Source of the DNA: Cenarchaeum sp.
GTDB lineage: Archaea; Thermoproteota; Nitrososphaeria; Nitrososphaerales; Nitrosopumilaceae
Assembly (NCBI GenBank): GCA_963693095.2
Contig: OY843768.1
Coordinates: 992,001-1,056,000 of the forward strand
Direction of reading: 5' to 3'
DNA length: 64,000 nucleotides
Both the position numbers and the translations under genes were made by a program. Shown piece by piece: positions 44,810-63,128 of the stretch. Positions within the stretch are counted from its first letter, which is position 1. Each line of letters opens with the position of its first letter. The notes beneath the pieces were generated by a model. That model was not told the DNA's origin. It did not search any database and worked only from the letters and a program-made list of their open reading frames with translations.

Positions 44810-44813
44810 CGCC

Positions 44814-45791: not shown

Positions 45792-46055
45792 CAGATGGCC
45801 GGAGACTCGGCGTCGTTATAAATATTCCAGGGTCATGCGCGTATGAGGCCAGCACCTCTCCGCCCATTTGGACAAATGGGCGCGATCTCGACCAATCCAT
45901 TTACCGCTGCGGCGCCTGCCTGGGCATGAGCGGTGGCGGTGCTGATCTCGTAATGTGCCAGTGCCGGCAAGGCGTAGACAGCAATGCTGGTGCCACGCGT
46001 GGCGGGGTTAGCCCTCGTCATCTGACATGTAGGGGCAGAGCCTGGCGAACTCGAG

Positions 46056-46354: not shown

Positions 46355-46436
46355 GTACACGATGACCCTGCCATACCACCTTGAGGCACAAGAAACCTCA
46401 TGGCATCATGGAACAGGCCAGTCATGCGCGTTCCCG

Positions 46437-47456
46437 TCACCCAACCCTGCGTATCCTCTCAGAGCGCTGACCGGGAACGTCAATCACGTACCTTCCGTCG
46501 CCGAGCTGCTCAAACCACTCATAGAGAACCTGCACGTTTCCCGTGAGATCCCGCCGGCTCGGAACCGGCACGTCAGTGCAGTTGTCCTGTATCCACTCCT
46601 TTACACGTCCAAAGTACGTCTCTGGGTCTATGAATGAGTCCATCTGTTGCACAAACGGGTGCGCAAAGAATCGTGATGCCAGCTGTGCGCGAAACTCTGC
46701 CTCTGACAGACCCAGCTCTATACCATAGTTTGCCAGGTCATGGAACACACATGCTGCCACCTCGTCATCATCAGACGGCTCTAGTCCCTGCCCCATTCTC
46801 GCGTATCCGGACACGAGGTCATCAACGCTCCTAGTCATCGGCAGTGCCGATACCAGAAACTTGTCTGGCTGCATTCTCACAAGCGAGTCAAGCTCATCCT
46901 CTGTCTTTGGTGGCTGCGGCTGTTTCCTAATCCATGCAGAAAGCTTGTCATACATTTCATCATCCACAAGCCGTGATTCGCAACGTATGCGCTCAAAGTA
47001 CACACGGTCATCCGGTGAGGCCTCTTTTACAAGCACGCCCATCTCATGGTTGCCGCCCTCGTGCATTCCCCTGCGCGACATGTTTCCCGTGCAGAGCACA
47101 TAGTGGCGCAGTCCGACCGAGACAACCTTTAGGTGGATTTTAGAGTTCACGTAGAGCCTGATGTCCTGCTCCTTGCAGTACGGATACAGGGACAGCTCGG
47201 ATGAGCCTGACACAAGATCCCTAGTGTCCCACGTCGTGATGATCACCACCTTGGAGTCGATGCCGTCTAGGAGCTCCCTGACCACGTCTGTCCGGATATA
47301 GGGGACGATGATGTGGATCGTCTCGCCGCTGCGCGAGTGCTCCTCAATATAGGCCCTGACGCGCGCATAGAGGGGGCTCTGAAACGTGGGCTGCTCGTCG
47401 GTCAATCCGGCGCGCACGCGCGGGGTTCCCGTATATGGATGGTTGGAAGAGGCCAC
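46437..47456 (-). CDS. phospholipase D-fold (BfiI/NgoFVII-like) putative nuclease
   Basis: IIVPYI, IHLKV (HxK), CTGNMS..G...NHE.G; located in a defence island. Confidence 0.7.
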   Translation of the reverse strand: MASSNHPYTGTPRVRAGLTDEQPTFQSPLYARVRAYIEEHSRSGETIHIIVPYIRTDVVRELLDGIDSKVVIITTWDTRDLVSGSSELSLYPYCKEQDIRLYVNSKIHLKVVSVGLRHYVLCTGNMSRRGMHEGGNHEMGVLVKEASPDDRVYFERIRCESRLVDDEMYDKLSAWIRKQPQPPKTEDELDSLVRMQPDKFLVSALPMTRSVDDLVSGYARMGQGLEPSDDDEVAACVFHDLANYGIELGLSEAEFRAQLASRFFAHPFVQQMDSFIDPETYFGRVKEWIQDNCTDVPVPSRRDLTGNVQVLYEWFEQLGDGRYVIDVPGQRSERIRRVG

Positions 47457-47608
47457 AAGGCACAGAAACGATCAACAGAGAAATGTGGCGCAAGCGTGTA
47501 AACTGAGCACATCATTGAGATCTACTCCAATGAAAAGGTGCAAGTATGAGCATAACAAGCACGTAGTCAAGATGCTTGTTCAAACAACTAAACCACTTAA
47601 CTCACACA

Positions 47609-47670
47609 AGCGTTGTTTCATAACCTCTCCCGGGTATCATTCCCGCATGCTCCCCTGCCCGGCGTCCTTC
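47609..47670 (+). mobile_element. IS5-family left-end fragment
   Basis: AGCGTTGTTTCATAACC (47609-47625) is a 16/17 match to the reverse complement of 46338-46354; followed by a short GC-rich IS-like tract. Confidence 0.55.
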
Positions 47671-47722
47671 GCACGAGGCACGCGGCAGTTTAACCAAGTC
47701 ACAAATGGATCGGCGCGTGCGA

Positions 47723-47879
47723 TGGCTGGTGTCATGGACGCAAAGTACGTTGACAGAGAGAAGATGTTCGTCATTGGCTGGTACACTAGGGGCAAGCTAG
47801 TGCCTCGCGTCGTCCGCGTCCGCGCGCATGGCAAACATCCTGTCCCTGCCAACGTACTTTGCGTTCTCTGTGCCAGCCA
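47723..47879. repeat. imperfect 52-bp inverted repeat with a 53-bp spacer
   Basis: Arms 47723-47774 and 47828-47879 share the perfect core ACGCAAAGTACGTTG/CAACGTACTTTGCGT and TGGCTGG/CCAGCCA ends. Confidence 0.75.
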
Positions 47880-48202
47880 ACGCGATGTCAGCTCACGAGC
47901 CGAGCCATTTAGGGTTAAGTCGTGGACGTCACGTGCATAGACGCGGTTATGAGATAGGGCCACAGATGCGGCAGGCTCATAACCATTACCAATCACAACA
48001 GATTTGTATCATGTAATACTAACGCAGTTCAAAAGATTTTAAAATAGTATTGTTATTCTACGTGTCATTCAAAACAAATCAAAAAAAGAGCGAACAGTAG
48101 AATTAAAAAACAAAAATTATTGCAGGAGTTTAGGTTTGAGGACATTAAAGAAGTTGATGAACAAATAATGAATAGACACATACAGAATAAAACTTCTATA
48201 AA

Positions 48203-50026
48203 TTATTTATCTAATTTCTTACGAATCGGATTTAAATCGATTTCTTTAGTGATTATATCTATAAGACGATTATGGCGTTTGAGTATTTCGTCGACATTCC
48301 AGATTGGAATTTCAGTTAATTCTTTTGTTATTTTATAAGTTGGTGATTTGCCATATACAATTTTTTTGTCTTCAAATGATTTTTTGCCAGCATCAACATT
48401 ATATTCATGAGCTAAAAGAGTTTGATTACCAATTAATCTATAATGCTTGGTATGAATAATATTAATAATTTGTTTAGGGGATTTGCCAGCAATTTCTTTG
48501 TTGTGGGTAAGAATATAGTCGTTCCAGAGATCATGATCTTTAGGCATTATATGTTCGACGGTTGTGCCAACACGACTTATTTTGTCAGACTTTTCGTATT
48601 CAACTTCCTCTAAGAGGACCTGAGCTTGACGGCCACGTGCAAAATCTTTAGTGTACAAAACACCTTTTATCGCTTCGTCATCAGGATATTCATTACCGAT
48701 TAATATCTTGTCAGAGATTATTTTACCCAATGAAACACCTTTATAAATATCACAAATAACACCATATAATTTACGTTCATAATTTTTGGTTTCAAATATA
48801 CGTGTTATAACCATAACCCTGACATGATACTTAAAACATAGCGTGACTAAATCTTCAAAGGTTTCATGATCTTTGCGCTTCCAATATTTTTCATAACCTG
48901 CCAAAAGGACAGGATACACATAGATGGCGCCCATATCGTTAATTTTTTTAAGATAGTAAATGGTGTTCGGGCTATTTTGAAAGTGAATCGGATCAGCTGT
49001 TCAAATTTTTTCAAATACCTTTGACCAGGACGATAATTCATCTATTATCGTATCAGGCATCATGCCAGAGTTTATCAATTTTTTGAACCCATTAGGGATT
49101 AGCTTGAGGTGCGGGACAGTTTTGGGACGATATTTATTTAAAAGTAGGTAATGGTTTAGAAATTTGTCAAGCTTGTAATTAGAGCCATTATAACTAGTCA
49201 CATTGTCAACTATGCCCTTCCATTCACGATCATAACGCTTTGTAATCTTATCTCCATCTGTGTTTTGTTCTATCATGCTCAGCAGATATGCCTTAACATG
49301 ATCAGCCGGATTAAGTTTTATTCCACGGTTGTTGATTAATTCAAACATACGATATATGTCTGTATGGCGAGCATAAGAAATGTGATAAACGAAGAATTTA
49401 TTCAAGACATTATTAATATATTCATAGGCCTGATCAATGTCATGTTCGTCCTTATGAGGAAGTTTTGCCACATGGAGGCGAATTTTAGTATACGCAGATA
49501 TTAGCCTCATGTTAGATTTGTTGCTATACTTTGGCTTGAGATCAGTTGCGGTATGTCCAACATTACGTTTAGGTCTAGGTTCTGGTTCAAAAGGAATAGA
49601 TATGAGCATCTCGTGAAAAAGATCTTTGTCGGTTTGGCTCAGAGTCAAGATAGGGGCAGAGCCGTTAATAGTCGATTTGTCGTCAATATGCAAGATTCGA
49701 CTAAGAGTTTTCAAATATTTTTGAGCGTTATTGTATTTTTTATGTTTATCAAAAAAGTTTCTGGCACAGATCAGCAATAATAACGCAGTGGTTAGGCGTT
49801 GTTGACCATCAATTATCGTGGTAGGTTGAGCAGAGTCGTTGTTTGTGGTGATAATCAGTCCGAATGGATGTTCTTCATCATTGCGAACTTTATCCAAATC
49901 ATCAAGAAAGTCAGCCACATGTTTTGGTTTCCATGAATAGCCACGTTGCTGGGAGGGGATGACATAGTGTGTGTTAGATCTAAGCACTTTTTTCAAGGGT
50001 TGCTTGTCCACAAGAAAACGACTCAC
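48203..50026 (-). pseudogene. DUF262 + DUF1524 (SspE/GmrSD-like) nuclease interrupted by one in-frame TGA at 49001-49003
   Basis: The N-part has IPSQQRGYSW, IIDGQQRLTT and FELINNRG; the C-part has TVEHIMPK, IGNQTLL...N and F..KK..Y. The two ORFs share a frame with 22 open codons between them. Confidence 0.8.
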
Positions 50027-50457
50027 TAGCCAGTAATTAAACTTAATCTGCTGCCTAGCCAGGCAGAGGAGTGCAGGCCAATAGCTCGATAGGCGGAAAT
50101 CTGACTAGACGCGATCTAGTAGCGGAACACACCGATGGGAAATTCTAGCACCACATCAGGCAATATGAAGGGCAGGTTACAGAAAAGGCCATGTAGTCAA
50201 TATCCGTCATGAGGCTAGATGACATGGGGTAAACAGAACAAAATCAGCCACATGGTATGGCAAGTGCTCCAATCAGCTCATTTGGCTGGCATAGGAGGCA
50301 TCACTGGCCACAGTCTGAGACCTTCCGGCCGCAGATCAACCCCCCGGCACGCACTGTGGGTGAAAACAACATCAATAATGGGTTGATCGCAGGCACAACC
50401 AAATTGATTTAAACTCCCACCCCCTCGTGGGGGCATGGCAGGCCAGGAGTTGATCGC

Positions 50458-51297
50458 ATGACGCGCCACGTGTGCGGCATATCGGGCGGCAAGGACTCTA
50501 GCGCGCTGGCCGTCTACATGAGGGACAAGGTTCCGGACATGGAATACTTCTTTTGTGACACGGGGGCCGAGCTTCCCGAGACGTATGCGTACATCAACAA
50601 GCTAGAGGTCGTCCTCGGCAAAAAGATTGCCCGCCTCAACTCTAGCCGCGGGTTTGACCACTATTTCGAGGTCTTCAAGGGATGCCTGCCGTCCCCGCAG
50701 ATGAGGTGGTGCACAAAGCTCCTAAAGATAAAGCCGCTCGAGGAGTGGCTCGGCGATGACGAGTCCGTCTCATATGTCGCCATACGCGCCGACGAAAAGA
50801 ACCGCAAGGGGCACGTGTCATCTAGACCCAACATAACTACCCAGTACCCGTTCATCGACGATGACATTGACCTCGATGGCGTGAACCGCATACTCGAGGA
50901 GGCCGGCATTGGCCTGCCCGACTATTACAAGTGGCGCACGCGCTCGGGCTGCTACTTTTGCTTTTTCCAGCGCAAGGCTGAATGGGTCGGCCTGCAGCAA
51001 CACCACCCAGAGCTCTTCAAGCAGGCAGTCGCAATCGAGAACAAGGTCCTAAAGGACGCAGGCGCCAATGGTGATGCGTCATTTGCCGATCACGCAATGG
51101 AGGGCAGGCAGTACACGTGGTCGCAGGGAGAGACACTCATACAGCTAGTCAGCCGAAAGGACCAGATACTAGAGAACCACAAGGCCGCAATGGAGCGCTC
51201 CAAGGGAAAAAGGAAAAACCTGCCGCTAGTGGACGTCTTAGGCGGAGCGCTAGACGACGAGGAGGACACAAAGGCATGCACAATGTGCCATCTATAG
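50458..51297 (+). CDS. sspD: PAPS-reductase-family protein of the Ssp phosphorothioation module
   Basis: SGGKDS PP-loop, DTGAELPET, RWCT..LKIKP, RSGCYFC; adjacent to the desulfurase and DUF4007 genes. Confidence 0.85.
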   Translation: MTRHVCGISGGKDSSALAVYMRDKVPDMEYFFCDTGAELPETYAYINKLEVVLGKKIARLNSSRGFDHYFEVFKGCLPSPQMRWCTKLLKIKPLEEWLGDDESVSYVAIRADEKNRKGHVSSRPNITTQYPFIDDDIDLDGVNRILEEAGIGLPDYYKWRTRSGCYFCFFQRKAEWVGLQQHHPELFKQAVAIENKVLKDAGANGDASFADHAMEGRQYTWSQGETLIQLVSRKDQILENHKAAMERSKGKRKNLPLVDVLGGALDDEEDTKACTMCHL

Positions 51298-51336
51298 TGT
51301 GGTCAACGACCCACCTGCGTTCAAGCGGAGGGCGAC

Positions 51337-52563
51337 ATGGAAGATAACAACGGTCGTGCTGGCACACACGGTTCGGGCAATGTCACGTACATGGACTATA
51401 ACTCTACTACTCCCGTGGATCCACGCGTCATTAGGGAGATGGAGCCGCTGTTCAGCACATGGTATGGCAACCCGTCAAGTGAGTATCACCGATATGGCCG
51501 GGACGCAGTGGCTAGGGCAGAGCGCGCACGCGCGCAAGTTGCCGAGCTTGTCGGCATGGGTTCACCCGATGTCATATTCACGTCAGGCGCCACAGAGGCC
51601 AACAACCTTGCGCTTCGGGGAATGGCCGAGGGGGCCGGAAGGCGCATTCGCATACTAGTCGGCGCCGCAGAGCACAAGTCCGTCCTAGAGGCAGCCGATG
51701 GCCTAGCCGAGCTCGGCCTAGCCACCACAGGCAGCGTGCCGGTGGGCAGTGACGGCGTCACTGACTGCGACGCCCTAGCCAACGCGCTCTCCGGGGACAA
51801 GGTCGACCTAGTCTCGATCATGGGAGCCAACAGCGAGACAGGCGTCGTGCAGCCGATCGGGCAGATCGCCGAGATTGTCCACGCGGCAGGCGCGATATAC
51901 CACTGCGACATGACTCAGGGGGTCGGCCGCATCCCCTTTGGCGCCTCTGGGCTAGGCGTTGACATGGTCTCGCTGAGCAGCCACAAGTTATACGGGCCCA
52001 AGGGGTGCGGCGCGCTCGTGGCGAGCAGGGAAGTGCGCAAGAGGCTGCGCGCAACGATGCGCGGTGGCGGCCAGGAAAACGACCTGCGCAGCGGAACGCT
52101 CAACGTGCCCGGCATCGTGGGGTTTGGCAAGGCATGCGAGATCGCCTCCAAGGACGGGCTTGCCGATGCCCCCCGGCAGCAGGCGCTCAGGGACGCACTA
52201 GAGGAGAGGCTCACGTCCAGGATTTCCGGGACGAGCGTGAACGGTGCTGATGCCCCACGCCTGCCCAACACGTCAAACGTGAGGTTTGAGGGCGTGTCTG
52301 CGATGGCAATGATCGCAAACGTGCCGTCACTGGCAATCTCGTCCGGAAGCGCGTGCTCGGCGTCCACGGTCTCCCCCTCGCACGTTCTGCTGGCCATGGG
52401 AATGGGCGACGAGGCGGCCGACGAGTCGCTCAGGTTCTCCATTGGCCGTCCGACAGTGGAGGCTGACATTGACGCCGCAATAGGCCAGGTTGTCGCCGCA
52501 GTCGAGCGCATAAGGGGCATGACAGAGAATGCCATGACAGTGGGTGAAGGACATGCACATTGA
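51337..52563 (+). CDS. sspA: cysteine desulfurase (IscS/DndA/SspA type)
   Basis: YMDYNSTTP, GNPSS, SGATEANN, SSHKLYGPKG (PLP Lys), RSGT, SSGSACS (catalytic Cys). Confidence 0.9.
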   Translation: MEDNNGRAGTHGSGNVTYMDYNSTTPVDPRVIREMEPLFSTWYGNPSSEYHRYGRDAVARAERARAQVAELVGMGSPDVIFTSGATEANNLALRGMAEGAGRRIRILVGAAEHKSVLEAADGLAELGLATTGSVPVGSDGVTDCDALANALSGDKVDLVSIMGANSETGVVQPIGQIAEIVHAAGAIYHCDMTQGVGRIPFGASGLGVDMVSLSSHKLYGPKGCGALVASREVRKRLRATMRGGGQENDLRSGTLNVPGIVGFGKACEIASKDGLADAPRQQALRDALEERLTSRISGTSVNGADAPRLPNTSNVRFEGVSAMAMIANVPSLAISSGSACSASTVSPSHVLLAMGMGDEAADESLRFSIGRPTVEADIDAAIGQVVAAVERIRGMTENAMTVGEGHAH

Positions 52564-53551
52564 GCAGGCGGTTCCAAATCCGGGGTTTGCGCGGCACGAG
52601 ACGTTTCACCTCCGCTTTGGGTGGCTCAAGAAATGCTATGACGGGACGAGTCAGGACGAGCGCGTGTTCCAGAGTGAGGACGCCCTAGTCAGGCTAGGCG
52701 TCGGAAAGAACATGGTTCGCGCCATTCGCTTTTGGGGCATCGCCGCAAAGATCATACGGCAAAAGGTCGAGCCCGGCGAGGAGAGCAGGCGCGGGAGCCA
52801 GGAGGTCGAGGTCACCGAGATGGGACGCAGGATATTTGACGGCAAGACCGGCCTGGATCCGTACCTCGAGCGCCCCGAGACGCTGTGGCTGCTCCACTGG
52901 CTAATCTACGCCCCGCCGTCGTCAATCCCCGCATGGTGGGTGATCATGAACGACCTAAGTGCGGTGAGGGTGCCTGTGGGCGAGCTTCCCGGATATGTGC
53001 GCGGCAAGGTGAGCACCGTGGACACGTGGGCAATACCCAACGAAACCTCGATCAAAAAGGACACGGACGCGTTTGTGCACACGTACGCCTCAAAACGCGA
53101 CAATATCGGGGACATGGAGGATTACATGGACTGCCCGTTTCGCGCGTTGCGCATAGTAAAGGCCGACACTTCGGCAAAGTCCACCATACAGTTCTCCATC
53201 GGCATAAAGCCTGGCATGAGCGCAGACATTGTTGCATATATCTGCCTAGACTTTTTGAATCGTCTTAGAACGGAGAGCCGAACCGTGTCGGTGAACTATT
53301 TGACAACCGAGCCTGGGGGGCCTGGTCACGTGCTAAAGCTTGATGAGCCAAGCCTCACAAAACTGCTGACCGAGGCGTCTAAAGTCAGTGGACGATCCAT
53401 CAAGGTGTACGATGTCAACGGCGTCGCACACATATCATTCCCAAAAGACATAATGAAAGAGGCCACGCAGATACTAGAGCAGATATACGCCACAGACAAG
53501 ACACGGGTTCGGCGCAAGGCACCCAAGGTCGTGATGAGGGCACGCAAATGA
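52544..53551 (+). CDS. sspB: DUF4007 protein (SspB nickase-like)
   Basis: FARHETFHLRFGWLKK, LGVGKNMVRAIRFW, DPYLE...TLWLLHW; overlaps the sspA stop. Confidence 0.88.
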   Translation: MKDMHIEQAVPNPGFARHETFHLRFGWLKKCYDGTSQDERVFQSEDALVRLGVGKNMVRAIRFWGIAAKIIRQKVEPGEESRRGSQEVEVTEMGRRIFDGKTGLDPYLERPETLWLLHWLIYAPPSSIPAWWVIMNDLSAVRVPVGELPGYVRGKVSTVDTWAIPNETSIKKDTDAFVHTYASKRDNIGDMEDYMDCPFRALRIVKADTSAKSTIQFSIGIKPGMSADIVAYICLDFLNRLRTESRTVSVNYLTTEPGGPGHVLKLDEPSLTKLLTEASKVSGRSIKVYDVNGVAHISFPKDIMKEATQILEQIYATDKTRVRRKAPKVVMRARK

Positions 53552-56500
53552 CACGCGAACGGCCACCAATGGCAAAAGTATCCAAAAAGGCAAAGGTCAA
53601 GACAAAGGGCAGACAAGGCACGGTGAAAAAGCCAGTTCAGCGAAGCGAACCGTTGACTAGGCTAGTCACGCCTGTTGACTCGTTTGTGCGCTCGACGAAC
53701 ATAGAGAGAGACAGGGCAGGATCAGAGTCCCTTGGGACATACATTGCAGACGCCTCAGTCCTAGACACGGTTCATCGGGTGTCTGCCTCCATGGAGTCAG
53801 GCGGAAGGGCATTTTCCGTGACAGGCCCGTACGGGTCTGGCAAGTCAACACTAGCCGTGTTTCTCAACGGCCTAGTCGCCCCGTCAGCCGATCCTGACTG
53901 GAAGTATGCGCATCGCCTGCTGCAGGGCATCGCGCCTGCCATGTCCAGGCAGATCGTCGCCGGACGCAAGCACCTCAAGGCTCACAGGGGCGGGTTTGTC
54001 AGGTGCTTTGTGGTGTCAAGCCGCGAGCCGGTGGTCGTGACCGTCGTGAGGGCACTAGAGCACGGAGTAAAGGAGCACTTTGGCCCAAAATACTCCAACA
54101 GGGACTTTGCCACGGCTAGCCAGCTGCGGCGCGTGTGTGACGATATACGCCGGACGGGCAAGGCAGGGCTGTCAGGCACGTCCCACGCAGGCGCAGTCAT
54201 GGAGATAATCAGGGACATATGCGCCAAGACGCCCATCATGATCGTGATTGACGAGTTTGGCAAAAACCTCGAATACTTTGCAGAGAGCAAGTCCGGAGAC
54301 GGCGACCTGTTCCTCCTGCAGACCATGGCCGAGGCCGGTGCCGGAAAGAATGGCATTGCGCTGTTTATGATCACCATGCAGCACATGGCATTTGAGGAGT
54401 ATGGTGTGGGAATATCGGCTGCGCACAGGAGGGAGTGGGCAAAGGTGCAGGGGAGGTTTGATGACATTCCATTCTCAAACTCGGCAGGGCAGACAAGGCT
54501 CCTAGTTGGCAAAGCACTCCGTGTCACCAATAATCTAAAGCGTCAAAGGACAGTAGGAAAATGGGCAAGAGATCACAGAAGGGTATTGCATAACCTAGGC
54601 TTAGACAGAGATCTTAGTGAAGAGGTGTTAACATCATGCTACCCACTCCACCCGCTAGCCCTGCTCGTTCTGCCAGAGCTGTGCGCCAGGTACGGGCAAC
54701 ATGAGCGAACCCTAATGTCATTTGTCGCCGGAAGTGGAAAGAATGCAGTTCCCGCATTCATAGACAATGAAACTTGGTCAGGAAACAAACTCCCTTCCAT
54801 GGACATAGAGTCCCTGTATGACTATTTTGTGTCTAGCCACCAGTCGACCAGTTCAGCGTCTGCGGCAAACGTGACGCGTCTCATGGAGATCACATCAATA
54901 ATACGTGACTCGTATGGACTTTCCAGGCAGGCGATAAAGACGCTCAAGACGATCGGGGTGCTAAACCTAATCTCGACATCAGGTCCCCTGCGTGCCTCCA
55001 AGGGCGTCATAGAGTATGCCATTGGCACGCATATTGAGGAGGCCATCGAAGAGCTAGAGGCAGGGTCGCTCATAACATATCGTCCATACGCAGACGAGTA
55101 CAGGATATGGCGCGGAACTGACGTGGACATACAGGCCTCAATAGATGTTCTATCCAAGCACTATTCCGGCGTGCCCCTAGCCCACACGCTAGAGCGTATA
55201 GCGCCGCTAGACCCCGTCATAGCCGCACGGCATGGAATCCGAACAGGGACGATGAGAATGTTTGAAAGGAGGTTTTTTGGGCAAAAGGAGGGCGAGGTTG
55301 ACGTGTCGAGGCAGGACTATGACGGCATTGTCCTGTACTCTACAGAAAAGGATGGCAGTCTGCCAAGGATCAGCACCGGCACAAAACCGGTAATTCTCGT
55401 AAGGCCCGCATCTAGCACACACGAGATAAGCGGAGTTGCGCTAGAGACTGCCTCCATAATGGAGATGCTTGAGTCTGATGAATCCATAAAGGGCGACTGG
55501 GTGGCAAGACGCGAGCTTTGGAGTCGCATGAGCCATGGCATTACCACAATCGAGTCCTGGCTTGAGCACGCATACGGAAACGATGCAGAGTGGTGGCTGT
55601 ATAACGGGACAAAACCCCACAGGATTGACGAGGCAGGCGGGGCAGCAGTGTCATCTGCAGCAGACATTGCGTATCCAGGAACACCGTACATTCACAATGA
55701 GATGATCAACCGCACAAAGCTGTCCATGCAGGCATCACGCGCCCGCCTCATGCTAATCAACGCGATGATCAGAGACCACACAAAGAAAAACCTTGGGATA
55801 GAAGGATGGGGGCCGGAACGCGCAATGTACGAAGCCGTGTTAAAAAAGACTGGACTGCACAAGCGCAATGGCAAAGTATGGAAGATTGCAGCGCCAACGC
55901 AAGATATACTAGCCGCATGGGAGTCAGTAAGCAAGTCAATTGAGCGTTCACAAAAACATCGCGTGAATGTGGGAGAAGTATATGCGGCATTGCAAACACC
56001 TCCCATAGGTGGAAAAGGCGGCATGGCACCCGTTCTCCTGTCAGCTGCGCTAATCATCAAGAGTGGAGACGTGGCGCTATACGAACACGGGACATACTGT
56101 CCAAACATTGCACCAGAAGTGGTGGAACGACTGCTAAAGAACCCCACACATTTTGAGATAAAGCACTTTGCTAGCAAGACAAAACTCAAAGCAAATGTGA
56201 TCCAAAACGTTGGCAAAGAACTAGGAATAAAAAATCCAAGCCTGCTGGGAATAGTAAGCTCGCTCGTAAAGACTCTGAGTGGGTTGCCAAAATACACAAA
56301 GACAACAAAAATGCTCGAAAAGCACGACCTGATGGTCAGAAACGCAATACTCACGGCCACAGAGCCCGACGTTATGCTGTTTGAAGCGCTCCCCAAGGCA
56401 CTAGGACTAGGACTAGAACTGTCAGGGAGATCAGCCTCAAATAGAGTCGTTAGCGAGTTTGCGCACAACCTAGCTATGTCAATCAAGTCAATAGAGCTGT

Positions 56501-57030
56501 TTTATCCGCGCACGCTAAAAATGCTGCAGAGTAGCCTGCTCAAGGCAACACAGACAAAAGAACGACAGCGCCTAGAGGCCATAGCAGCATCGCTATCGAA
56601 AAGGACAACTGCTGCAGATCCCAAAATGCGAACATTCCTGAACGCCATAACAACAAGCACTCTAGAGACTGAAGACTGGATCGAGTATGTAGCAATGATT
56701 ATGACGGATGCTCCAATGAGTGAATGGAATGACGACATGTACGAGTTATTCCATGCCAATTTACAAGAGATAGCAGGCAGGTTTTCGCGCCTAGTCGCCC
56801 TAAACTTTGAAAAGACGTCAAAACACATGAGCACAGATCCATCATTGTACAGAGTCACGGTTACAAACCAAGACGGAACGGAAAATACCAACATAGCGTC
56901 AATAAACAAGCGACAGGAAAAGAACGTAAATGAGATCGTTGAACGTATGATCGACGTAATCCAAAAAAACAGAGGAGAACGTCCACAGATCGTTTTAGCA
57001 TTAATTGCGTCATTAGCGAAGAAGTTATAA
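53548..57030 (+). CDS. sspC: large P-loop ATPase (SspC-like)
   Basis: GPYGSGKS Walker A, IVIDEFGKNLE Walker B, EWAKVQGRF, YPLHP, GQHERTL; ATGA-coupled to sspB; 1160 aa. Confidence 0.85.
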   Translation: MTRERPPMAKVSKKAKVKTKGRQGTVKKPVQRSEPLTRLVTPVDSFVRSTNIERDRAGSESLGTYIADASVLDTVHRVSASMESGGRAFSVTGPYGSGKSTLAVFLNGLVAPSADPDWKYAHRLLQGIAPAMSRQIVAGRKHLKAHRGGFVRCFVVSSREPVVVTVVRALEHGVKEHFGPKYSNRDFATASQLRRVCDDIRRTGKAGLSGTSHAGAVMEIIRDICAKTPIMIVIDEFGKNLEYFAESKSGDGDLFLLQTMAEAGAGKNGIALFMITMQHMAFEEYGVGISAAHRREWAKVQGRFDDIPFSNSAGQTRLLVGKALRVTNNLKRQRTVGKWARDHRRVLHNLGLDRDLSEEVLTSCYPLHPLALLVLPELCARYGQHERTLMSFVAGSGKNAVPAFIDNETWSGNKLPSMDIESLYDYFVSSHQSTSSASAANVTRLMEITSIIRDSYGLSRQAIKTLKTIGVLNLISTSGPLRASKGVIEYAIGTHIEEAIEELEAGSLITYRPYADEYRIWRGTDVDIQASIDVLSKHYSGVPLAHTLERIAPLDPVIAARHGIRTGTMRMFERRFFGQKEGEVDVSRQDYDGIVLYSTEKDGSLPRISTGTKPVILVRPASSTHEISGVALETASIMEMLESDESIKGDWVARRELWSRMSHGITTIESWLEHAYGNDAEWWLYNGTKPHRIDEAGGAAVSSAADIAYPGTPYIHNEMINRTKLSMQASRARLMLINAMIRDHTKKNLGIEGWGPERAMYEAVLKKTGLHKRNGKVWKIAAPTQDILAAWESVSKSIERSQKHRVNVGEVYAALQTPPIGGKGGMAPVLLSAALIIKSGDVALYEHGTYCPNIAPEVVERLLKNPTHFEIKHFASKTKLKANVIQNVGKELGIKNPSLLGIVSSLVKTLSGLPKYTKTTKMLEKHDLMVRNAILTATEPDVMLFEALPKALGLGLELSGRSASNRVVSEFAHNLAMSIKSIELFYPRTLKMLQSSLLKATQTKERQRLEAIAASLSKRTTAADPKMRTFLNAITTSTLETEDWIEYVAMIMTDAPMSEWNDDMYELFHANLQEIAGRFSRLVALNFEKTSKHMSTDPSLYRVTVTNQDGTENTNIASINKRQEKNVNEIVERMIDVIQKNRGERPQIVLALIASLAKKL

Positions 57031-57070
57031 CTACGTCACTAGATATAGACTGTGCGCGGCACCAACATGA

Positions 57071-58693
57071 TCAAGTGTCCCAGTAGGCTGAAAAATATTC
57101 ATACACATCGTCCAATCCACCATATTCAGTAATGATATTGTCCACAACGTCAATAAGCTGAAATTCTTCTGTCCCGCCTAGTTCTAATCCTCGCATACCT
57201 CTTCCAATCATTTGGCCATAAACCACCACAGATGTAGTTGGTCTAGCAATAACCACAGCATCGATATTTGGAGCGTCAAAACCAGTGGTGAATATATCAT
57301 AATTAAATATGAATTGAATGTCCCCATTTTTAAATTTGTTGATCACATCGTGTCTGTAGTTATGTGGCGTACTACCATCAACATGAATAGCGGATTTTCC
57401 CAGAGCAATCAATAATCCGCACAAGAGTTTTGATTGGCGGACACTTGCATTGAAAACGATTATGTGTTTGCAAGATTCAGATAGCTCCAGTAATTTTTGG
57501 ACAATTTTTAAATTACGTGGCACGTCATCAGCGATTTTTTTTAGTACTGAATCTGGATATTCATGATTAAAACTTTTTTGAATTTGATTCCATTCATCTT
57601 TAGTTAAATAAAATTTACGTTTTGTTTGTAATGGTTTTCGTATACACCTAGAAAGAATATTTTTATCTTGGAGATAAGAAATTGGACTTTGAACACCAGA
57701 GTCAATTGTGATGATTTGATTATCAAAAAAATCAGCCAGCTTGTCTGAATGTTTTGTTCGCCCAGGGGTTGCAGAAAGACCAATAATCTTAGTTTGTTTA
57801 TAAAATATATCACAAAGGGCTTTTATAATTTTTTGGTAAGTTGGTGCCAAAGCATTGTGTGCTTCGTCAGCAACTATTAGATCAGCTTTTAATGATAGTT
57901 GTTCGTTAAAAAGTGGATTACGAATTTTTTGATACATGGCGATAATTAATTGTGAGTGATCAAAGTCGAGATCAGGGATAGGGTGTTTCCCCCAAAGTCT
58001 AGAAATAGTGAGATCGCACTTAGCAACATGAGGCCAGATTGCAAGAAACGTATCGTATGCTTGTTCGCACAGTTCAGAGCGGTCGGCAAGCCAAACAACA
58101 GTTCTAGATTTGTTTGAATTTAAAAATGATGATACGATCTCCATGGCTACCCTAGTCTTACCTGATCCAGTGGGCATTTGAACAACAATTTTTGAATTTG
58201 GGTATTCAGCGTACTGCCGAGCTTTAAAATATACATAAGCCTGGTAATCTTTTAGAGTAGTATAGGTATGAATTGATTTAGGTATGAAATTTGCAGCTGG
58301 CACAGGTTTAACGCTATGTGGAATTAAATAATCAGGATATTGAAAGGCACTTACAAATGATTTAGTTATATCGTTATTAGACCAAACAAACCTAGATGAA
58401 CGTTTTCGAAATTCAACATCATCAATATCGGCATTGGTGTACGATATGTTTGATTTTTGTACAAAATCCAAAAATTGTGAAGAGGGAGCATATTTGAGCA
58501 AATTAGAACGAAACTGATGATTTGAATATTGATCAATATTCAGTGCGTGGTGTAATTGTCCAAGAAGATCTTTATCGTGCCGAAGCGGCAAATCAATGTC
58601 AGGGTCAATTGATTTTAATAGCAACTCCCATGAATCAATAAAAGGATCAAGGTTTTCATATAGTTGATCAAATGGGAGGTGTTGATTCAGCAT
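57071..58693 (-). CDS. SF2 DEAH helicase (ResIII/type III restriction-like), no evident nuclease domain
   Basis: LKDYQ, MPTGSGKT, ADEAH, SATP, TTGFDAP, QMIGRG.RG; AT-rich. Confidence 0.88.
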   Translation of the reverse strand: MLNQHLPFDQLYENLDPFIDSWELLLKSIDPDIDLPLRHDKDLLGQLHHALNIDQYSNHQFRSNLLKYAPSSQFLDFVQKSNISYTNADIDDVEFRKRSSRFVWSNNDITKSFVSAFQYPDYLIPHSVKPVPAANFIPKSIHTYTTLKDYQAYVYFKARQYAEYPNSKIVVQMPTGSGKTRVAMEIVSSFLNSNKSRTVVWLADRSELCEQAYDTFLAIWPHVAKCDLTISRLWGKHPIPDLDFDHSQLIIAMYQKIRNPLFNEQLSLKADLIVADEAHNALAPTYQKIIKALCDIFYKQTKIIGLSATPGRTKHSDKLADFFDNQIITIDSGVQSPISYLQDKNILSRCIRKPLQTKRKFYLTKDEWNQIQKSFNHEYPDSVLKKIADDVPRNLKIVQKLLELSESCKHIIVFNASVRQSKLLCGLLIALGKSAIHVDGSTPHNYRHDVINKFKNGDIQFIFNYDIFTTGFDAPNIDAVVIARPTTSVVVYGQMIGRGMRGLELGGTEEFQLIDVVDNIITEYGGLDDVYEYFSAYWDT

Positions 58694-60357
58694 TATTCTG
58701 GATCTTTATCAGTAGCGCCCTCAATTTTTTCATAAAGATAAAACGTCCAATTACGCATCAATCTCTTAATCACCTCGGCATTTTGTTGTTGGTCCGCATT
58801 GAATTCACGCCGAGCAATCGCAAAAGTGCCCAACGCAACATAAACGGAGTTTTTTATGTGCTTAAGTGCAAGTATTTGAGATTTGTCAAGATTAGGCGAT
58901 ATTGTGTCTAGTTTATTAAATGAATCAAAGAATAATTTCCAAAATGGGTGAAGCATGTTGAGTTGGAGTAATGTCCTATTACCTTCAGACACGATATCAA
59001 CGAACGGGCCAGCTGATCCTAAATTATAATTTTCATGAATCACATATGGTTTATCTGTTAGTTGCTGAAACAAAACGTCATTTTGAGCTTGGTTTTCTAC
59101 TCCCGCAGCTTTGAGAATGCTTGCAACCTCCTGATCATCTGGAGGAAGAGGATCACTTTGACCTTGCAGCCACTGTTCGGCCAATTCCGGAGATGCGGTA
59201 TTACCAATAACCTCTTGTTTTTTAGTTTTTTGATCTTCGCGAACTTTACGTATTAGCTTACGATAATCATAGATAGTACTGTTAACATGTTTTTGGATTA
59301 TTTCACGCATTTCAGGCAAAGGACGGGCACCAACTTTAATGGTCTTGACTTTAAACCAGCGATCAAGATCAGCATTAAAGGATATTTCACAACCCCAAAA
59401 TCGGTCAATTTCACGAGAATCCCCTTCATCCAGACTATAATGAGGTATTTTTCCAAACATCACCTCACGATCGTTGCGAAGTATGGAGAAACTAGTGGAC
59501 GTAACAAGCTGACGATCCTTATTTGCGATAGTGCCTCCCGAACCCTCTTTTTCCCACCAGGATTGGGGCAGTAACGATAATCGGATTGTGATAGGACTAG
59601 TGCCATGTTGCTTATCAGGAGGAGGATCATAAGTGTGGATTTTCATCGGAATGCTAATTTCTCCAGCAAGCTTTGAGACTTCATCGCCATATTTGGTTTG
59701 AGTTGCGTATAAAGGATCCAATGCAGGGATTTCTTTCCCATCAAGAAAAATATGGCGTTGGTTAGGATTTTGAACCACTTTGGAATTTGAGATTGTCTGT
59801 TTGCCGATAAATTTACGATAAGTTCTGCCTATCCATTTGATCAAGTCGTCAGAACGCGCATCTGCCATGTCAAGCTTTTTCCAGATCACAAGAGTGCCAC
59901 TATTCGCAATTAAATCAGAATAGTCTTCAGGAATGTTTTTTCTTATAGGAGGGGGGATTTTAGAACCAATTTCAAGAAAAGTGTAATACCATTCACCGCC
60001 TTTGGTTTTTGAGTACACCTCAATATGGCGACATTGGCTAATCGCACCAAGAATCATCCCCACGCCAAATCTTCCAATGCCTGATCTGTCATTATACCTA
60101 GACGAATATCCGAGAACCAAACATTTATGTAATGTGTCGGGATTCATGCCAATACCGTCATCTCCAAAAGCCATTTCAACAAATCTGTAATGTGGTTTAC
60201 GGGTTTCAACCTTTTGGGTCATGATCCTGATGTTGGTTGCCTCAGCCTGTATAGAGTTGTCTATGACTTCCCCGATGGCCGAGACTGTATCAAAATCCGA
60301 ATGTCGCATAGATTCAAGAGCTTGTTTGTCGTCAACTGGGCTTATAGGCGTGTCCAC
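58693..60357 (-). CDS. GHKL ATPase of the prokaryotic MORC/HATPase_c_3 type
   Basis: EVIDNSIQA, DDGIGM, GRFGVGM, GTLVIW, S5-like RNDREV; TAATG-coupled to the helicase. Confidence 0.85.
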   Translation of the reverse strand: MDTPISPVDDKQALESMRHSDFDTVSAIGEVIDNSIQAEATNIRIMTQKVETRKPHYRFVEMAFGDDGIGMNPDTLHKCLVLGYSSRYNDRSGIGRFGVGMILGAISQCRHIEVYSKTKGGEWYYTFLEIGSKIPPPIRKNIPEDYSDLIANSGTLVIWKKLDMADARSDDLIKWIGRTYRKFIGKQTISNSKVVQNPNQRHIFLDGKEIPALDPLYATQTKYGDEVSKLAGEISIPMKIHTYDPPPDKQHGTSPITIRLSLLPQSWWEKEGSGGTIANKDRQLVTSTSFSILRNDREVMFGKIPHYSLDEGDSREIDRFWGCEISFNADLDRWFKVKTIKVGARPLPEMREIIQKHVNSTIYDYRKLIRKVREDQKTKKQEVIGNTASPELAEQWLQGQSDPLPPDDQEVASILKAAGVENQAQNDVLFQQLTDKPYVIHENYNLGSAGPFVDIVSEGNRTLLQLNMLHPFWKLFFDSFNKLDTISPNLDKSQILALKHIKNSVYVALGTFAIARREFNADQQQNAEVIKRLMRNWTFYLYEKIEGATDKDPE

Positions 60358-60597
60358 GGATCAGAACACCGGGGACTACATAATAAACATATCTCAAAAC
60401 ATGGACTTCAATTACGCATGAAATTAGAGCTCACGCTAGCGAGTACACATGATGATGCGTAGGCCAAGGCTCCCAGGTGCCAGAGGCACCACGTGGCGCG
60501 CACATAGGTAGCAGGCACTCCCAGGCCGCATCTTGGCTACCACGTATTTAAAAACCCGAAATAACGCTTATACGATCAACAGCCCGCTCCAAGTCCA

Positions 60598-61245
60598 ATG
60601 TCAGGACAAGAGCACGCCACGCCATGCCCTACTTGCGGGAGCACCAGGGCCGCAGCGGAAGCCGACAGGGTGCCAAAAAAGGAGATCAGCGCGTATGAAG
60701 GCCGGATGAATCGGCTCAGGCTAGAGGCCGAGGGCGGACCACTCGCCCCCATACCAGGATCCGCAGTCCCCATATTCCATGTCCTCTGCGACGCCGGCGT
60801 GGTTGACTGCGGCATGTCTCCGAGCAATGGAAGCGTCGCGGAGCGCCTGGCACTGAACATACTGGTATACTTTGCAAAGCACAGGTTTGGGTGTCCCGGA
60901 CTGGAGAGGTTTGACTACGAGTGGAGCATATCAAGTCCCCACTCGATCAAGCTCGAGGTCGACCTTGATGACATTACTGATCTCCATTCAGAGCCGGCCC
61001 AAGAGTGGGACAGAAAGGACGAGTTTGTCAAGTTTGCGCAAAAGCACGGCAACGACGCCGAATGGCTCCAGATTGCCTCGACGATATGCCACATAGATGA
61101 CGAGATGATGAAGGATTCCGTGACGCTCACGCGAGATGAGATGATCGACGAGGCGCGCCAGTGGTACATATTCAATTCCAAGGCAGTGCCAGGGGTGTAT
61201 GACGATATTGTCGACATGCTAGCAAGGACACGGGGCGACGCGTAG
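60598..61245 (+). CDS. divergent Panacea/YwgA-like protein, copy 3
   Basis: LVYFAKHRFG...W....P.S..L, EFVKFAQKHGNDAEWLQIAST aligns with copies 1-2 (EFLDFAKNHNDVKWLEIAST); N-terminal CPTCG. Confidence 0.55.
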   Translation: MSGQEHATPCPTCGSTRAAAEADRVPKKEISAYEGRMNRLRLEAEGGPLAPIPGSAVPIFHVLCDAGVVDCGMSPSNGSVAERLALNILVYFAKHRFGCPGLERFDYEWSISSPHSIKLEVDLDDITDLHSEPAQEWDRKDEFVKFAQKHGNDAEWLQIASTICHIDDEMMKDSVTLTRDEMIDEARQWYIFNSKAVPGVYDDIVDMLARTRGDA

Positions 61246-61344
61246 CCCAAGGCGCCGGACACTGCATAAGTGCCACATGAAGCGCACATTAGGCAGCAAG
61301 AGTCCATAAACCGTGCTACGCCTACCGCGTATTTAAAAACCCGA

Positions 61345-62436
61345 TGTATTGTACAAAAAGTAGGAGCGGGGGCCAGAGGGCTTGCCGGGCGCGGATCCGG
61401 GAGCCCGCGGAGGGCCTTCGGGTCCGGCAGGCTGCCGAAACACACGTTTGGGGGCCTCCGGCGCCGGCGCGCCATGCCGGTCAGGAGGCTGGACGCGCGG
61501 GCGCTCCGGTACATCGCGAGGACGCTTGCGACCAGGAGCACCGGGGCAGTGGCGCGCGAGCTGGGGATCTCGCCGTCGTGGGCCCGCAAGCTCCGCGCGC
61601 ACTGCCGGCGGACCGGCGCGCCGCCGGAGCCGCGGCCGATGGGGAGGCCGCGCAGGCCGATCACGCGGGAGCAGGCCGACGAGGTCCTCGCCGCGCACTC
61701 GCGCGACCCCGTCGGCGTGGTGCACCTGGTCAGGCTCATGCGGCTCAACAACTCAAAAATAGCGTACGGCGCGGCGTACCGCATATTGTCTGCGGAGGGA
61801 CTGGTCAGCAGCTCGCCGGCGAGGTCGAGGAGGCGCAAGTGGGTGAGGTTCGAGAGAAAGTACTCCAACGCGATGTGGCACGTGGACTGGCACATAATGA
61901 AATACGGCCCCCTGAGGGGCTCGCACCTCATAGTGTTCCTCGACGACGCGTCGAGGTGCGTGACGGGGTTCGGTGTCTTCCCCGAGGCCACGTCGGGCAA
62001 CACTGTGCTCGTGCTGCACCACGCGATCGGGAGGTTCGGCAAGCCGGCGCAGGTGCTCTCGGACCACGGGACGCAGTTCACGGCGAGCCGGCGCGGCGCC
62101 CCGCGCCGCAGCTGGAAGCCGACGCTCTTCGAGCGGGAGCTGCTCGACGCCGGGATAAAGCACGTCATGGCGCGCGTCGGCCACCCCCAGACCAACGGCA
62201 AGGTCGAGAGGTTCTTCCGGACGCTCGAGACGGAGATCGACCGCCATGGCGGGGTCGCCGAGTTCATCGGGCACTACAACGAGGAGAGGCTCCACTTCTC
62301 CCTCGACATGGAGACCGGCGAGACGCCCCTGCTGGCCTTCAGGAGGCGGAGGGCCGACGGGCGGGTCCGGGCGGAGAACCCAGGGTGGATGGAGGTGGAC
62401 TCGGATGGGTAGCGCTCCTACTTTCCGTATAATACA
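61345..62436 (+). mobile_element. IS481-like insertion sequence (1092 bp) with 24-bp TG...CA inverted repeats and a 15-bp target duplication
   Basis: IRL TGTATTGTACAAAAAGTAGGAGCG, IRR CGCTCCTACTTTCCGTATAATACA; TATTTAAAAACCCGA at 61330-61344 and 62437-62451. Confidence 0.92.
61474..62412 (+). CDS. DDE (rve) transposase, single ORF
   Basis: N-terminal HTH (VARELGIS), WHVD, LDDASR, SDHGTQF, PQTNGKVERF, YNEER.H.SL. Confidence 0.92.
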   Translation: MPVRRLDARALRYIARTLATRSTGAVARELGISPSWARKLRAHCRRTGAPPEPRPMGRPRRPITREQADEVLAAHSRDPVGVVHLVRLMRLNNSKIAYGAAYRILSAEGLVSSSPARSRRRKWVRFERKYSNAMWHVDWHIMKYGPLRGSHLIVFLDDASRCVTGFGVFPEATSGNTVLVLHHAIGRFGKPAQVLSDHGTQFTASRRGAPRRSWKPTLFERELLDAGIKHVMARVGHPQTNGKVERFFRTLETEIDRHGGVAEFIGHYNEERLHFSLDMETGETPLLAFRRRRADGRVRAENPGWMEVDSDG

Positions 62437-62489
62437 TATTTAAAAACCCGAGATAACGCTTATACGATCAGCGGCCCGCTCCAAGGCCA

Positions 62490-63128
62490 ATGTCCGAGCA
62501 AGAGCACGCCACGCCATGCCCGACGTGCGGGAGCACCAGGGCCGCAGCGGAGGTCGGCAGGGTGCCAAAAAAGGAGATTAGCGCGTATGAAGGCCGGATG
62601 ATTCGGCTCAGGCTCGAGGCCAAGGGCGGGCCACTCGCCCCCATACCGGGATCCGCTGTCCCCATATTCCACGTCCTCTGTGACGCCGGCGTGATTGACT
62701 GTGACATGTCCCCAAAGAACGAGGACAACGACACTCGCCTGTCCCTGAACATGCTGGTCTACTTTGCAAAGCACAGGTTTGGGTGTCCGGGGCTGGAGAG
62801 GTATGTCTTTGATTGGAGCGCGGTGAGCACATTCTCGATGAAGCTAGAGCACGACTTTGATGACATGGCAGAATTTCATTCAGAACCAGCCCAAGAGTGG
62901 GACAGAAAGGCCGAGTTTGTCAAGTTTGCGCGCAAGCACGGCAACGACGTCGAATGGCTCCAGATAGCCTCGGCTATATGTTACATAGAGGACGAGATGA
63001 TGAAGGATTCCGTGACGCTCACGCGAGATGAGATGATCGACGAGGCGTGCCAGTGGTACATATTCCATCCCGAGGCCGTGCCAGGTGTGTACGACGACAT
63101 TGCGGGTTCGCTGTTGAGGACGGGGTGA
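62490..63128 (+). CDS. divergent Panacea/YwgA-like protein, copy 4 (close paralogue of copy 3)
   Basis: Near-identical N- and C-termini to 60598-61245, including the duplicated promoter region. Confidence 0.55.
   Translation: MSEQEHATPCPTCGSTRAAAEVGRVPKKEISAYEGRMIRLRLEAKGGPLAPIPGSAVPIFHVLCDAGVIDCDMSPKNEDNDTRLSLNMLVYFAKHRFGCPGLERYVFDWSAVSTFSMKLEHDFDDMAEFHSEPAQEWDRKAEFVKFARKHGNDVEWLQIASAICYIEDEMMKDSVTLTRDEMIDEACQWYIFHPEAVPGVYDDIAGSLLRTG

Follow-up and report, generated by a model that had tools for sequence, protein, structure and literature searches.

A GHKL ATPase–helicase pair and a PLD-fold protein at an ssp locus

The window analyzed here is a 64,000-nucleotide stretch of a Cenarchaeum sp. 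genome (family Nitrosopumilaceae; GenBank assembly GCA_963693095.2, contig OY843768.1, positions 992,001 to 1,056,000 of the forward strand), and positions in it are counted from its first letter. It contains an sspD-sspA-sspB-sspC operon (50458..57030), each gene of which gives a PADLOC match spanning nearly the whole profile, and which is presumed to be the phosphorothioate (PT)-writing partner that supplies the DNA mark. Converging on this operon is a pair of genes encoding a MORC-like GHKL ATPase and a superfamily 2 (SF2) helicase, and beyond its other end lies a gene for a predicted nuclease of the phospholipase D (PLD) fold (Table 1). Genes for all three proteins, hereafter the triad, recur together beside PT writers in other genomes, and judging from sequence comparison they probably form an undescribed DNA-cutting partner of PT marking systems.

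The original prediction for this locus described two intact, TAATG-coupled genes that converge on sspC with 40 bp between the stops, and the coordinates confirm this layout. The TAATG at 58693 is the overlap of the upstream GHKL stop with the downstream helicase ATG, and the stops of sspC and of the helicase gene fall at 57030 and 57071, respectively. As the database copy of the GHKL protein has 538 amino acids and begins at Met17, the true GHKL gene is likely 58693..60309, with its start at 60309. The GC content of the pair is 35-41%, compared to ~60% for the surrounding region and the genome. The assignment of the two products as a GHKL/MORC protein and an SF2 helicase is upheld by Pfam and PDB-sequence matches and, for the GHKL protein, by model matches, and Pfam shows no nuclease family in either protein.

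Table 1 Features of the window and, in the last five lines, of loci from the survey described below
Feature	Position	Strand	Remarks
MORC-like GHKL ATPase	58693..60357	-	554 amino acids; open, full length
SF2 helicase	57071..58693	-	540 amino acids; open, full length
Spacer between convergent stops of sspC and helicase	57031..57070	.	40 bp
Single-HKD (PLD-fold) predicted nuclease, third component	46437..47456	-	339 amino acids; weak PLD family match
sspD	50458-51297	+	PADLOC SspD E 2.8e-107
sspA	51337-52563	+	PADLOC SspA E 9.3e-127
sspB	52544-53551	+	PADLOC SspB E 2.6e-84
sspC	53548-57030	+	PADLOC SspC E 7e-302
Low-GC (~33-38%) insertion, outside the triad	47437..50391	-	2.95 kb; absent from congener L083
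GmrSD-type DUF262/DUF1524 gene, two pieces	48203-48934, 49001-50026	-	Pfam GmrSD_N 1.6e-33, GmrSD_C 1e-14
IS5 transposase fragment	45653-46297		flanks the whole stretch
rve integrase gene	61270-62412		flanks the whole stretch
DUF2196 + Schlafen/AlbA_2 gene beside PLD	L004:14324-15103		
DUF2196 + Schlafen/AlbA_2 gene beside PLD	L005:14339-15103		
DUF2196 + Schlafen/AlbA_2 gene beside PLD	L037:14332-15144		
DUF2196 + Schlafen/AlbA_2 gene beside PLD	L044:14353-15447		
DUF2196 + Schlafen/AlbA_2 gene beside PLD	L057:14919-15803		

Domain architecture and conserved motifs of the three proteins

The GHKL protein matches Pfam HATPase_c_3 (E 3.6e-19), and a profile search against PDB sequences returned only MORC2, MORC3 and MORC4 (E 2e-8 to 2e-5). 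When its structure model (predicted local distance difference test (pLDDT) score 82.9) was compared using VIA-align, the matches included SMCHD1 (Z 20.7), MORC3 (Z 20.7; root-mean-square deviation (rmsd) 3.7, 292 residues aligned, model residues 1-370), MORC2 (Z 18.8), MutL (Z 17.2-17.6) and topoisomerase VI-B (Z 17.2). Alignment of the first 370 to 380 model residues to MORC3, SMCHD1, MORC2 and MutL indicates a GHKL plus S5 transducer module (residues ~1-380), which is followed by a C-terminal domain (~390-554) of unknown family. A search of the ESM Atlas with the C-terminal 165 residues gave no informative relative, the only matches being stand-alone hypothetical proteins of 140-165 amino acids (0.94-0.95). 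In 23 homologues there is no variation at residues E30 and N34 of the N-box, in the G1 box D66xGxG70 or in the G2 box G93-G100. The protein thus combines the traits of the MORC/paraMORC group, namely intact Bergerat-fold GHKL motifs, an S5 transducer and an adjoining SF2 helicase, and on the basis of its model it can be described as MORC-like (GHKL+S5).

The helicase matches Pfam ResIII (E 3.9e-27) and Helicase_C (E 6.9e-16), with DEAD also matched (4e-27 to 7e-16 overall), and its best PDB sequence matches are SauUSI (7clg, E 3e-22) and RadD (6jde, E 8e-20). It is a ResIII/RadD/SauUSI-like translocase with a family-specific N-terminal domain (residues 1-145), and it terminates at 540 amino acids directly past motif VI with no further Pfam domain. 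Q151, the Walker A motif (174-181), the DEAH box (276-279), motif III and motif VI do not vary across 37 homologues. Positions 1-146 hold no invariant residue in the same set, L11 alone coming close, which speaks against a catalytic site concealed in the N-terminal domain. The ESM Atlas offered no informative relative for this domain (best 0.79).

The PLD protein is composed of an HKD domain (~18-175) fused to a bipartite winged-helix domain (~194-339), and its structure model has a pLDDT of 89.5. Residues H108, K110, N125 and E138 are invariant in 28 homologues. In VIA-align comparisons the N-terminal domain is closest to the PLD domain of SauUSI (Z 15.8, rmsd 2.6, 147 residues aligned), followed by Nuc (Z 14.0) and BfiI (Z 13.8). 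The C-terminal domain (194-339) gave middling matches to 3bhw, which we take to be a BrxA-family structure (Z 7.7), N.BspD6I (7.6), SspB (6.4), FokI (6.3) and BrxA (6.2). As the helix-turn-helix modules of BrxA, the DNA-binding domains of FokI and BpuJI, and SspB are described as structurally homologous (PMC12839542), these matches indicate one fold.

The triad is linked to phosphorothioate writers in bacteria and archaea

Full-length relatives of the GHKL and helicase proteins each number well over a thousand, and they often share contigs. To survey their neighborhoods, one genome per species was scanned with an alignment of 23 GHKL sequences. Two peptide patterns were used to select loci, with the best 80 of 102 matches taken, and the resulting set comprised 78 loci flanked by up to 10 kb each. 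The helicase was found by tblastn in 39 of these (hereafter pair loci), and in 38 it lies directly downstream of the GHKL gene on the same strand. A PLD homologue of at most 57% identity is present in 30 of the 39 pair loci by tblastn, usually 24-130 nt past the helicase gene, and Pfam adds two divergent PLD proteins (in L020 and L053), bringing the total to 32/39.

Among the pair loci, SspD was detected in 27, SspC in 26 and SspB in 19, so that 27/39 contain at least one SspB, SspC or SspD homologue. Another seven carry a run of dndB, dndC, dndD and dndE identified by PADLOC (L001, L003, L011, L012, L014, L018 and L044), and the ssp and dnd matches have PADLOC E-values of ~1e-11 to 1e-275. 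In total, 34/39 pair loci are linked to PT genes. Linkage is tighter still when only the 32 loci with at least 8 kb on both sides (full-flank loci) are counted, as PT writers lie within 10 kb in 31 of them (24 ssp, 7 dndBCDE). The sole exception, L002, lies among four transposase or integrase genes, and a transposase takes the place of the PLD gene. The other pair loci lacking PT genes are on short or truncated contigs (L037, L052 and L075) or have no more than a fragment of the GHKL gene (L073). As a control, 28 helicase-less loci of distant GHKL relatives were considered, for which at least 2.5 kb of downstream sequence was required and eleven shorter loci were left out; a PLD homologue was present in 0/28 and sspBCD in 1/28.

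Linkage to methyltransferases was considered as the alternative. Among 202 unlabelled open reading frames (ORFs) of at least 180 amino acids in the 32 full-flank loci, Pfam identified no DNA methyltransferase; the only methyltransferases were one SpoU rRNA methylase and two generic small-molecule types. The comparison of sspBCD or dndCD against methyltransferases that had been proposed for this pair therefore comes out at 31/32 against 0/32. In L004, L005, L009, L017 and L057 the GHKL gene starts only 4-60 nt past sspD or sspA. PT-linked triads span 12 phylum-level labels in both bacteria and archaea, and cultured, harmless carriers include Roseivirga seohaensis SW-152 (L009) and Nitrincola alkalisediminis JCM 19317 (L023). 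Other defense genes found at pair loci encode AIPR, HNH, ApeA, TIR, GmrSD and pPIWI proteins, and integrases are present as well.

The pair is an exchangeable cassette serving a resident PLD gene

To follow the module within the window's own class, 401 genomes were searched for SspB (PF13182) and for the helicase (E ≤1e-40). SspB was found in 26 genomes and the helicase in 27, with both in 22, and all of these belong to one family. The two share a contig in 19 of the 22 genomes and are at most 11 kb apart in 17. In L093 and L094 they are on the same contig beyond 11 kb, yet sspD directly adjoins the pair, and in three fragmented assemblies they are on separate contigs. Of the five helicase-only genomes, four carry dndBCDE by the triad (L001 and L100-L102), and in the fifth (G363, the source of L036) the ssp locus is broken by a contig end. 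PT genes were found beside the pair in all 20 of the regions fetched. A full-length GHKL match (E ≤1e-100) was present in only 2 of 30 relatives searched, with one further partial match, as expected for an accessory gene.

Comparison to a locus from the same genus (L083) was informative about the history of the window. The left flank and PLD gene (40360-47436 of the window) are 94.7% identical at the DNA level, and the PLD protein, which is encoded beside sspD in L083, is 92% identical to that of the window. This near-identical copy, along with the homologues in 32/39 pair loci, bears out the earlier suggestion that the PLD protein is a member of the system. The sspD genes share 86% DNA and 96% amino acid identity. 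L083 holds a helicase-GHKL pair of a sister subtype (38% GC) between sspD and sspA, a position that is empty in the window. Conversely, the segment of the window that holds its own pair (~56883-60536) has no DNA counterpart in L083, and the right flank matches again beyond it. Since the same locus and the same PLD gene occur with either cassette, the PLD gene is tied to the system and the pair is exchangeable. The GHKL/helicase pair hence appears to be an interchangeable cassette serving one PLD gene and ssp locus; in the window, the PLD gene and sspD appear native, and the low-GC cassette appears to replace the sister cassette still present in the congener.

The remainder of the operon has diverged further, with DNA identities between the window and L083 of 73% for sspA, 75% for sspB and 67% for sspC, against ~95% for the flanks. 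In addition, GC content declines along sspC toward the low-GC pair, with ~55% in the 5' part and 48% in the 3' part. Taken together, the GC drop and the lower identity of sspABC suggest that part of the ssp operon was swapped along with the cassette.

A tree of concatenated GHKL and helicase sequences (38 rows; IQ-TREE, LG+G4, SH-aLRT) groups the window pair with three Nitrosopumilaceae loci at 100% support and demands at least five switches between Ssp and Dnd partners. The low GC content of the pair was also considered as a sign of transfer from another domain of life, an idea that was dropped because the class census shows the host's own family to carry the module. Overall, the triad genes travel together, nearly always adjoin or are embedded in writer operons, keep their catalytic motifs and are swapped as cassettes.

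Variants of the module and related neighborhoods

In 16-17 of the 39 pair loci, a gene of ~200 codons is inserted between the GHKL and helicase genes (L016-L023, L029, L034, L038, L043, L049, L051, L052 and L057; for example, L057:11684-12307). All eight of the intervening proteins tested are PC4-like, a single-strand-DNA-binding family (PF02229, E 1e-7 to 1e-13), and the C-terminal half of the PC4-like protein is homologous to the last 110 amino acids of the GHKL protein. A second addition, encoding a DUF2196 plus Schlafen/AlbA_2 protein, is located past the PLD gene in five of six tested loci (Table 1); by tblastn it is found in 10/78 loci, all within the helicase-bearing 39. Neither the PC4 gene nor the DUF2196 plus AlbA_2 gene was found in the window by tblastn (best E 0.69), and the window holds the minimal three-gene form of the module.

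In the sister subtype seen in the congener, subtype B, the helicase gene precedes the GHKL gene; it uses the same PLD family and is located inside ssp loci (L083-L094; for example, L083:8243-11604). In L019 (4030-12540) a subtype-B pair and a four-gene set of the window's subtype (A) stand in tandem by sspDCB and share one PLD gene. Large proteins of 571-776 amino acids with a partial DndB-like domain are encoded beside the triad in L014 (6046-7761), L034 (13850-15811) and L051 (7414-9744).

More distant GHKL relatives were also observed near PT genes. In L069 (9959-15845), sspB-sspC-sspD is followed by a distant GHKL gene (631 amino acids) and ORFs of 623, 542 and 176 amino acids with no Pfam family, an arrangement that may be a further PT-linked GHKL system. 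In L071 of Endozoicomonas (2735-15623), a distant GHKL gene is located between a gene for a 1711-amino-acid HerA-domain (DndH-like) protein and dndE-dndD-dndC. Finally, in L028 (11753-16863) and L045 (4598-9567) such relatives lie by genes for a cysteine desulfurase, BrxL and a DUF7862-7864 protein, surroundings that look like a BREX type 4 (PT-type) neighborhood.

An interrupted GmrSD-type gene and mobile elements in the flanks

In the window genome, the PLD gene is parted from sspD by a 2.95-kb low-GC insertion containing a GmrSD-type gene in two pieces (Table 1). This gene had been read as an interrupted SspE-like gene. It is indeed interrupted, by a single in-frame stop (49001-49003) in a frame that is otherwise open over ~607 codons (48203-50026), and it has the DUF262 and DUF1524 domains of SspE, but the PADLOC profiles HEC-06 and Orf5 match it far better than SspE does. 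The related proposal that the pair compensates for the loss of this gene finds no support; the gene is in a separate insertion that is absent from the congener. DUF262 genes recur within the ssp loci of relatives (L005, L007, L036, L084, L086, L090 and L099).

An IS5 transposase fragment and an rve integrase gene bracket the stretch. On either side of the integrase gene a segment of ~0.7-0.8 kb is present in two copies (60432-61344 and 62434-63103), each with a ~213-amino-acid ORF of no known family (60598-61245 and 62490-63128), and both copies match a single stretch of L083 (17407-18214).

Comparison to known systems

Neighborhoods in which prokaryotic MORC or paraMORC proteins are accompanied by an SF2 helicase and a nuclease were predicted to be restriction-like by Iyer, Abhiman & Aravind in 2008 (PMC2292703). 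The triad resembles them in having a GHKL+S5 ATPase by an SF2 helicase with a nuclease nearby, which in a few of their instances has an HKD domain in place of a restriction-endonuclease fold. As described there, however, methylases are the partners and the HKD domain forms a fusion with a Rad25-like helicase (PMC2292703), whereas in the triad a PT writer is the partner, the nuclease stands as a protein of its own that bears a winged-helix domain, and DNA methyltransferases are absent from 32/32 full-flank loci. The term 'Dnd' is absent from the main text of PMC2292703.

SauUSI provides the closest match to the other two components, ranking first in the structural comparison of the PLD domain and in the PDB sequence search with the helicase. 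The logic of a nuclease plus a motor is shared, with an HKD domain bearing the His and Lys residues (here on a separate protein) and an SF2 motor. While SauUSI is one polypeptide with a C-terminal 5mC/5hmC recognition domain and attacks modified DNA, the window has separate nuclease and motor genes without a recognition domain, adds a GHKL ATPase, and is located beside a modification writer. By sequence and model, the helicase and PLD protein may thus be said to resemble a split SauUSI.

Among PT-associated systems, PbeABCD is similar in that it is a PT-neighborhood effector combining an HKD nuclease with an SF2 helicase. PbeA is described as an HKD-SF2 fusion whose partners are a CxC ABC ATPase (PbeC), the DndE-like PbeD and a small protein that is disordered (PMC10853773); the system here instead has a GHKL/MORC-type ATPase, and its helicase lacks an HKD domain. 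The window helicase matches the PADLOC PbeA profile with 75 bits at positions 260-436 of 672, the helicase part only, and likewise matches just the helicase part of the PADLOC Type IV enzyme profile. No match to PbeC or PbeD was found among the 15 window proteins scanned with PADLOC.

The triad occupies the same niche by sspBCD or dndBCDE as SspE, SspFGH, DndFGH and DndI, and its role is presumably the same. SspE consists of DUF262 (GmrSD_N) and DUF1524/HNH domains, neither of which is in the pair, and PADLOC gave no SspE match for either pair protein, among the best 25 of 40 matches in the case of the helicase. DndFGH, comprising a HerA/FtsK ATPase, a triple winged helix and other domains, is unlike the pair, and with the same limit for the helicase no DndF, DndG or DndH match was found for the pair or the PLD protein. 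SspFGH is set apart by its description, which lists a Walker-A protein (SspF), SspG, and SspH with an FtsK/SpoIIIE-like C-terminus and no other recognized homology (PMC8092258); this domain content differs from a GHKL ATPase, an SF2 helicase and a PLD protein. The original placement of the pair outside SspE, SspFGH, DndFGH and PbeABCD therefore stands, with no match to any of them, as judged for SspFGH from domain content.

The nearest named family of the GHKL protein is MzaB of the Mza system (NCBIfam 52.9 bits, PADLOC 38.6 bits), although 52.9 bits is far under the NCBIfam equivalog cut-off of 850 and the partner genes of Mza are others. A working analogy is provided by MutL-MutH-UvrD, in which a GHKL+S5 clamp couples a mark-reading nuclease with a helicase, and MutL is a strong structural match of the GHKL model. 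In contrast to that system, the triad has no MutS-like sensor, its nuclease and helicase are of other families, and its context is defense rather than repair.

HKD-helicase fusions beside dnd genes are already known (PMC10853773). What appears to be new is a trio of separate genes with near-obligate coupling to PT writers, which would make it a PT restriction-modification system with a MORC-type restriction arm. Literature searches found no paper tying a GHKL/MORC ATPase, a helicase and a PLD protein to PT systems, though an earlier mention is possible. Supplementary tables aside, 'MORC' is absent from the comparative papers PMC10853773 and PMC12839542, and 'GHKL' and 'HATPase' are absent from the former.

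Discussion

We consider it quite likely that the GHKL ATPase, helicase and PLD protein together form a conserved three-protein effector that is dedicated to PT systems and acts as their DNA-attacking arm. The undescribed PT-coupled restriction arm foreseen in the original prediction is thus borne out with respect to its PT coupling (31/32 loci), while restriction itself and the use of PT as a self mark belong to a mechanism that we infer. In such a mechanism, PT marks placed by SspABCD, or by DndABCDE elsewhere, would flag self, and unmarked invading DNA would be cut. The PLD protein would bind DNA through its BrxA/SspB/FokI-like domain, supplying recognition, and may cut as a dimer, as do Nuc, BfiI or SauUSI. 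The helicase would translocate along double-stranded DNA, powered by ATP, and together the two could act as a split SauUSI or as a Type I/III-like motor nuclease. The GHKL protein is predicted to dimerize upon ATP binding and to form a clamp that licenses or couples the helicase and the PLD protein, a role modelled by analogy on MutL, which couples mark-directed nicking by MutH with UvrD. That the module is used with Dnd as well as with Ssp writers suggests a readout of the sulfur mark, or of some general feature, in place of a single sequence motif.

Several points weigh against this interpretation. DNA cleavage, defense and PT dependence are here predictions from gene content. The two-pattern sampling, with the best 80 of 102 matches taken, tilts the survey toward close relatives, and many of the loci come from one archaeal family and are hence not independent. 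In the window itself, the PLD gene lies beyond the ssp operon, at a distance of 9.6 kb from the pair, and has a different history, so the window's own combination of PLD gene and pair may be non-functional. For the C-terminal domain of the PLD protein, the winged-helix matches (Z 6-8) fall in the chance range of the tool and may serve as a lead. Lastly, DndFGH is described as often decoupled from its writer (PMC10853773), and neighborhood alone accordingly leaves the self/non-self logic unfixed.

That logic could also run in the opposite direction, with PT-marked host DNA switching on the ATPases and the nuclease then attacking the invader, in which case the module would do no harm in the absence of PT and would differ from a classical restriction enzyme. 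PT has been reported to be protective for DndFGH and SspFGH and activating for SspE. Tight linkage to the writer fits such PT sensing equally well, and the use of the module with partners that make double-strand PT (Dnd) or single-strand PT (Ssp), between which it has switched at least five times, is easier to understand if sulfur itself is read. The stimulation of SspE by PT provides a precedent (PMC8092258). However, no sulfur-binding domain is recognized in any of the three proteins, and the writer-less locus L002 lacks the nuclease gene, a single case hinting that the nuclease is not tolerated or useful alone; on balance, activation by PT seems unlikely, though deserving of serious attention.

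A repair or maintenance function, in which a MutL-like clamp, helicase and nuclease would process nicks or oxidized PT sites, draws on the match of the GHKL+S5 module to MutL, which is almost as good as that to MORC (Z 17.6 vs 20.7), on the nickase nature of SspB, and on the PC4-like proteins that join the module in 16-17/39 loci. Such a device is nevertheless very improbable, as restriction enzymes (SauUSI, BfiI, NgoAVII and Type I R subunits) are the closest relatives that the nuclease and helicase have, the spread is patchy (full-length GHKL matches in 2/30 relatives plus one partial), cassette swapping is typical of defense genes and not of housekeeping repair, and SspABCD alone is sufficient for modification in E. 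coli. Least credible to us is that the triad is an autonomous MORC-helicase defense cassette of the kind predicted in 2008, which merely clusters with PT genes in defense islands. MORC and SFII helicase neighborhoods have been called restriction-like without reference to PT (PMC2292703), other defense genes and integrases share the loci, and the pair is low in GC and mobile. Mere clustering would have to account for PT linkage in 31/32 loci versus 1/28 in the helicase-less outgroup, for genes packed into or directly against writer operons, for an association that holds with two unrelated writer systems and 12 phylum-level labels, and for the presence of the helicase in 22/26 SspB-positive genomes although only 26/401 genomes have SspB.

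If the triad is a dedicated PT effector, a broader picture can be drawn, which we offer tentatively and hold to be somewhat short of an even bet. The triad may represent a fourth, as yet unnamed class of PT-coupled restriction machine that is interchangeable between Dnd and Ssp writers and serves ammonia-oxidizing archaea as their chief PT partner. Its MORC-type clamp would license a mark-reading nuclease and motor, a prokaryotic forerunner of the silencing of foreign DNA that eukaryotic MORCs achieve with epigenetic marks, and the GHKL relatives beside BREX type 4-like genes would belong to the same picture.

In a 2021 census of 2,678 sspBCD loci, SspFGH accompanied 7.3% and SspE 7.4%, leaving ~85% without a known restriction partner (PMC8092258), and dnd and 'dnd-like' genes have been noted in ammonia-oxidizing archaea without a partner (PMC7848895, PMC6790972). 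The module would fill much of this orphan-writer gap, both in the class of the window (22/26 SspB-positive genomes) and in many bacterial phyla. Because it works with Dnd and Ssp writers alike, the PT self/non-self question becomes directly testable, and a compact three-gene system makes it possible to address how self is told from non-self when PT marking is only partial; the cultured bacteria that carry the module render such experiments practical. If this reading is true, prokaryotic MORC-like ATPases, for which a restriction role was predicted in 2008, would gain a defined epigenetic mark and defined partners.

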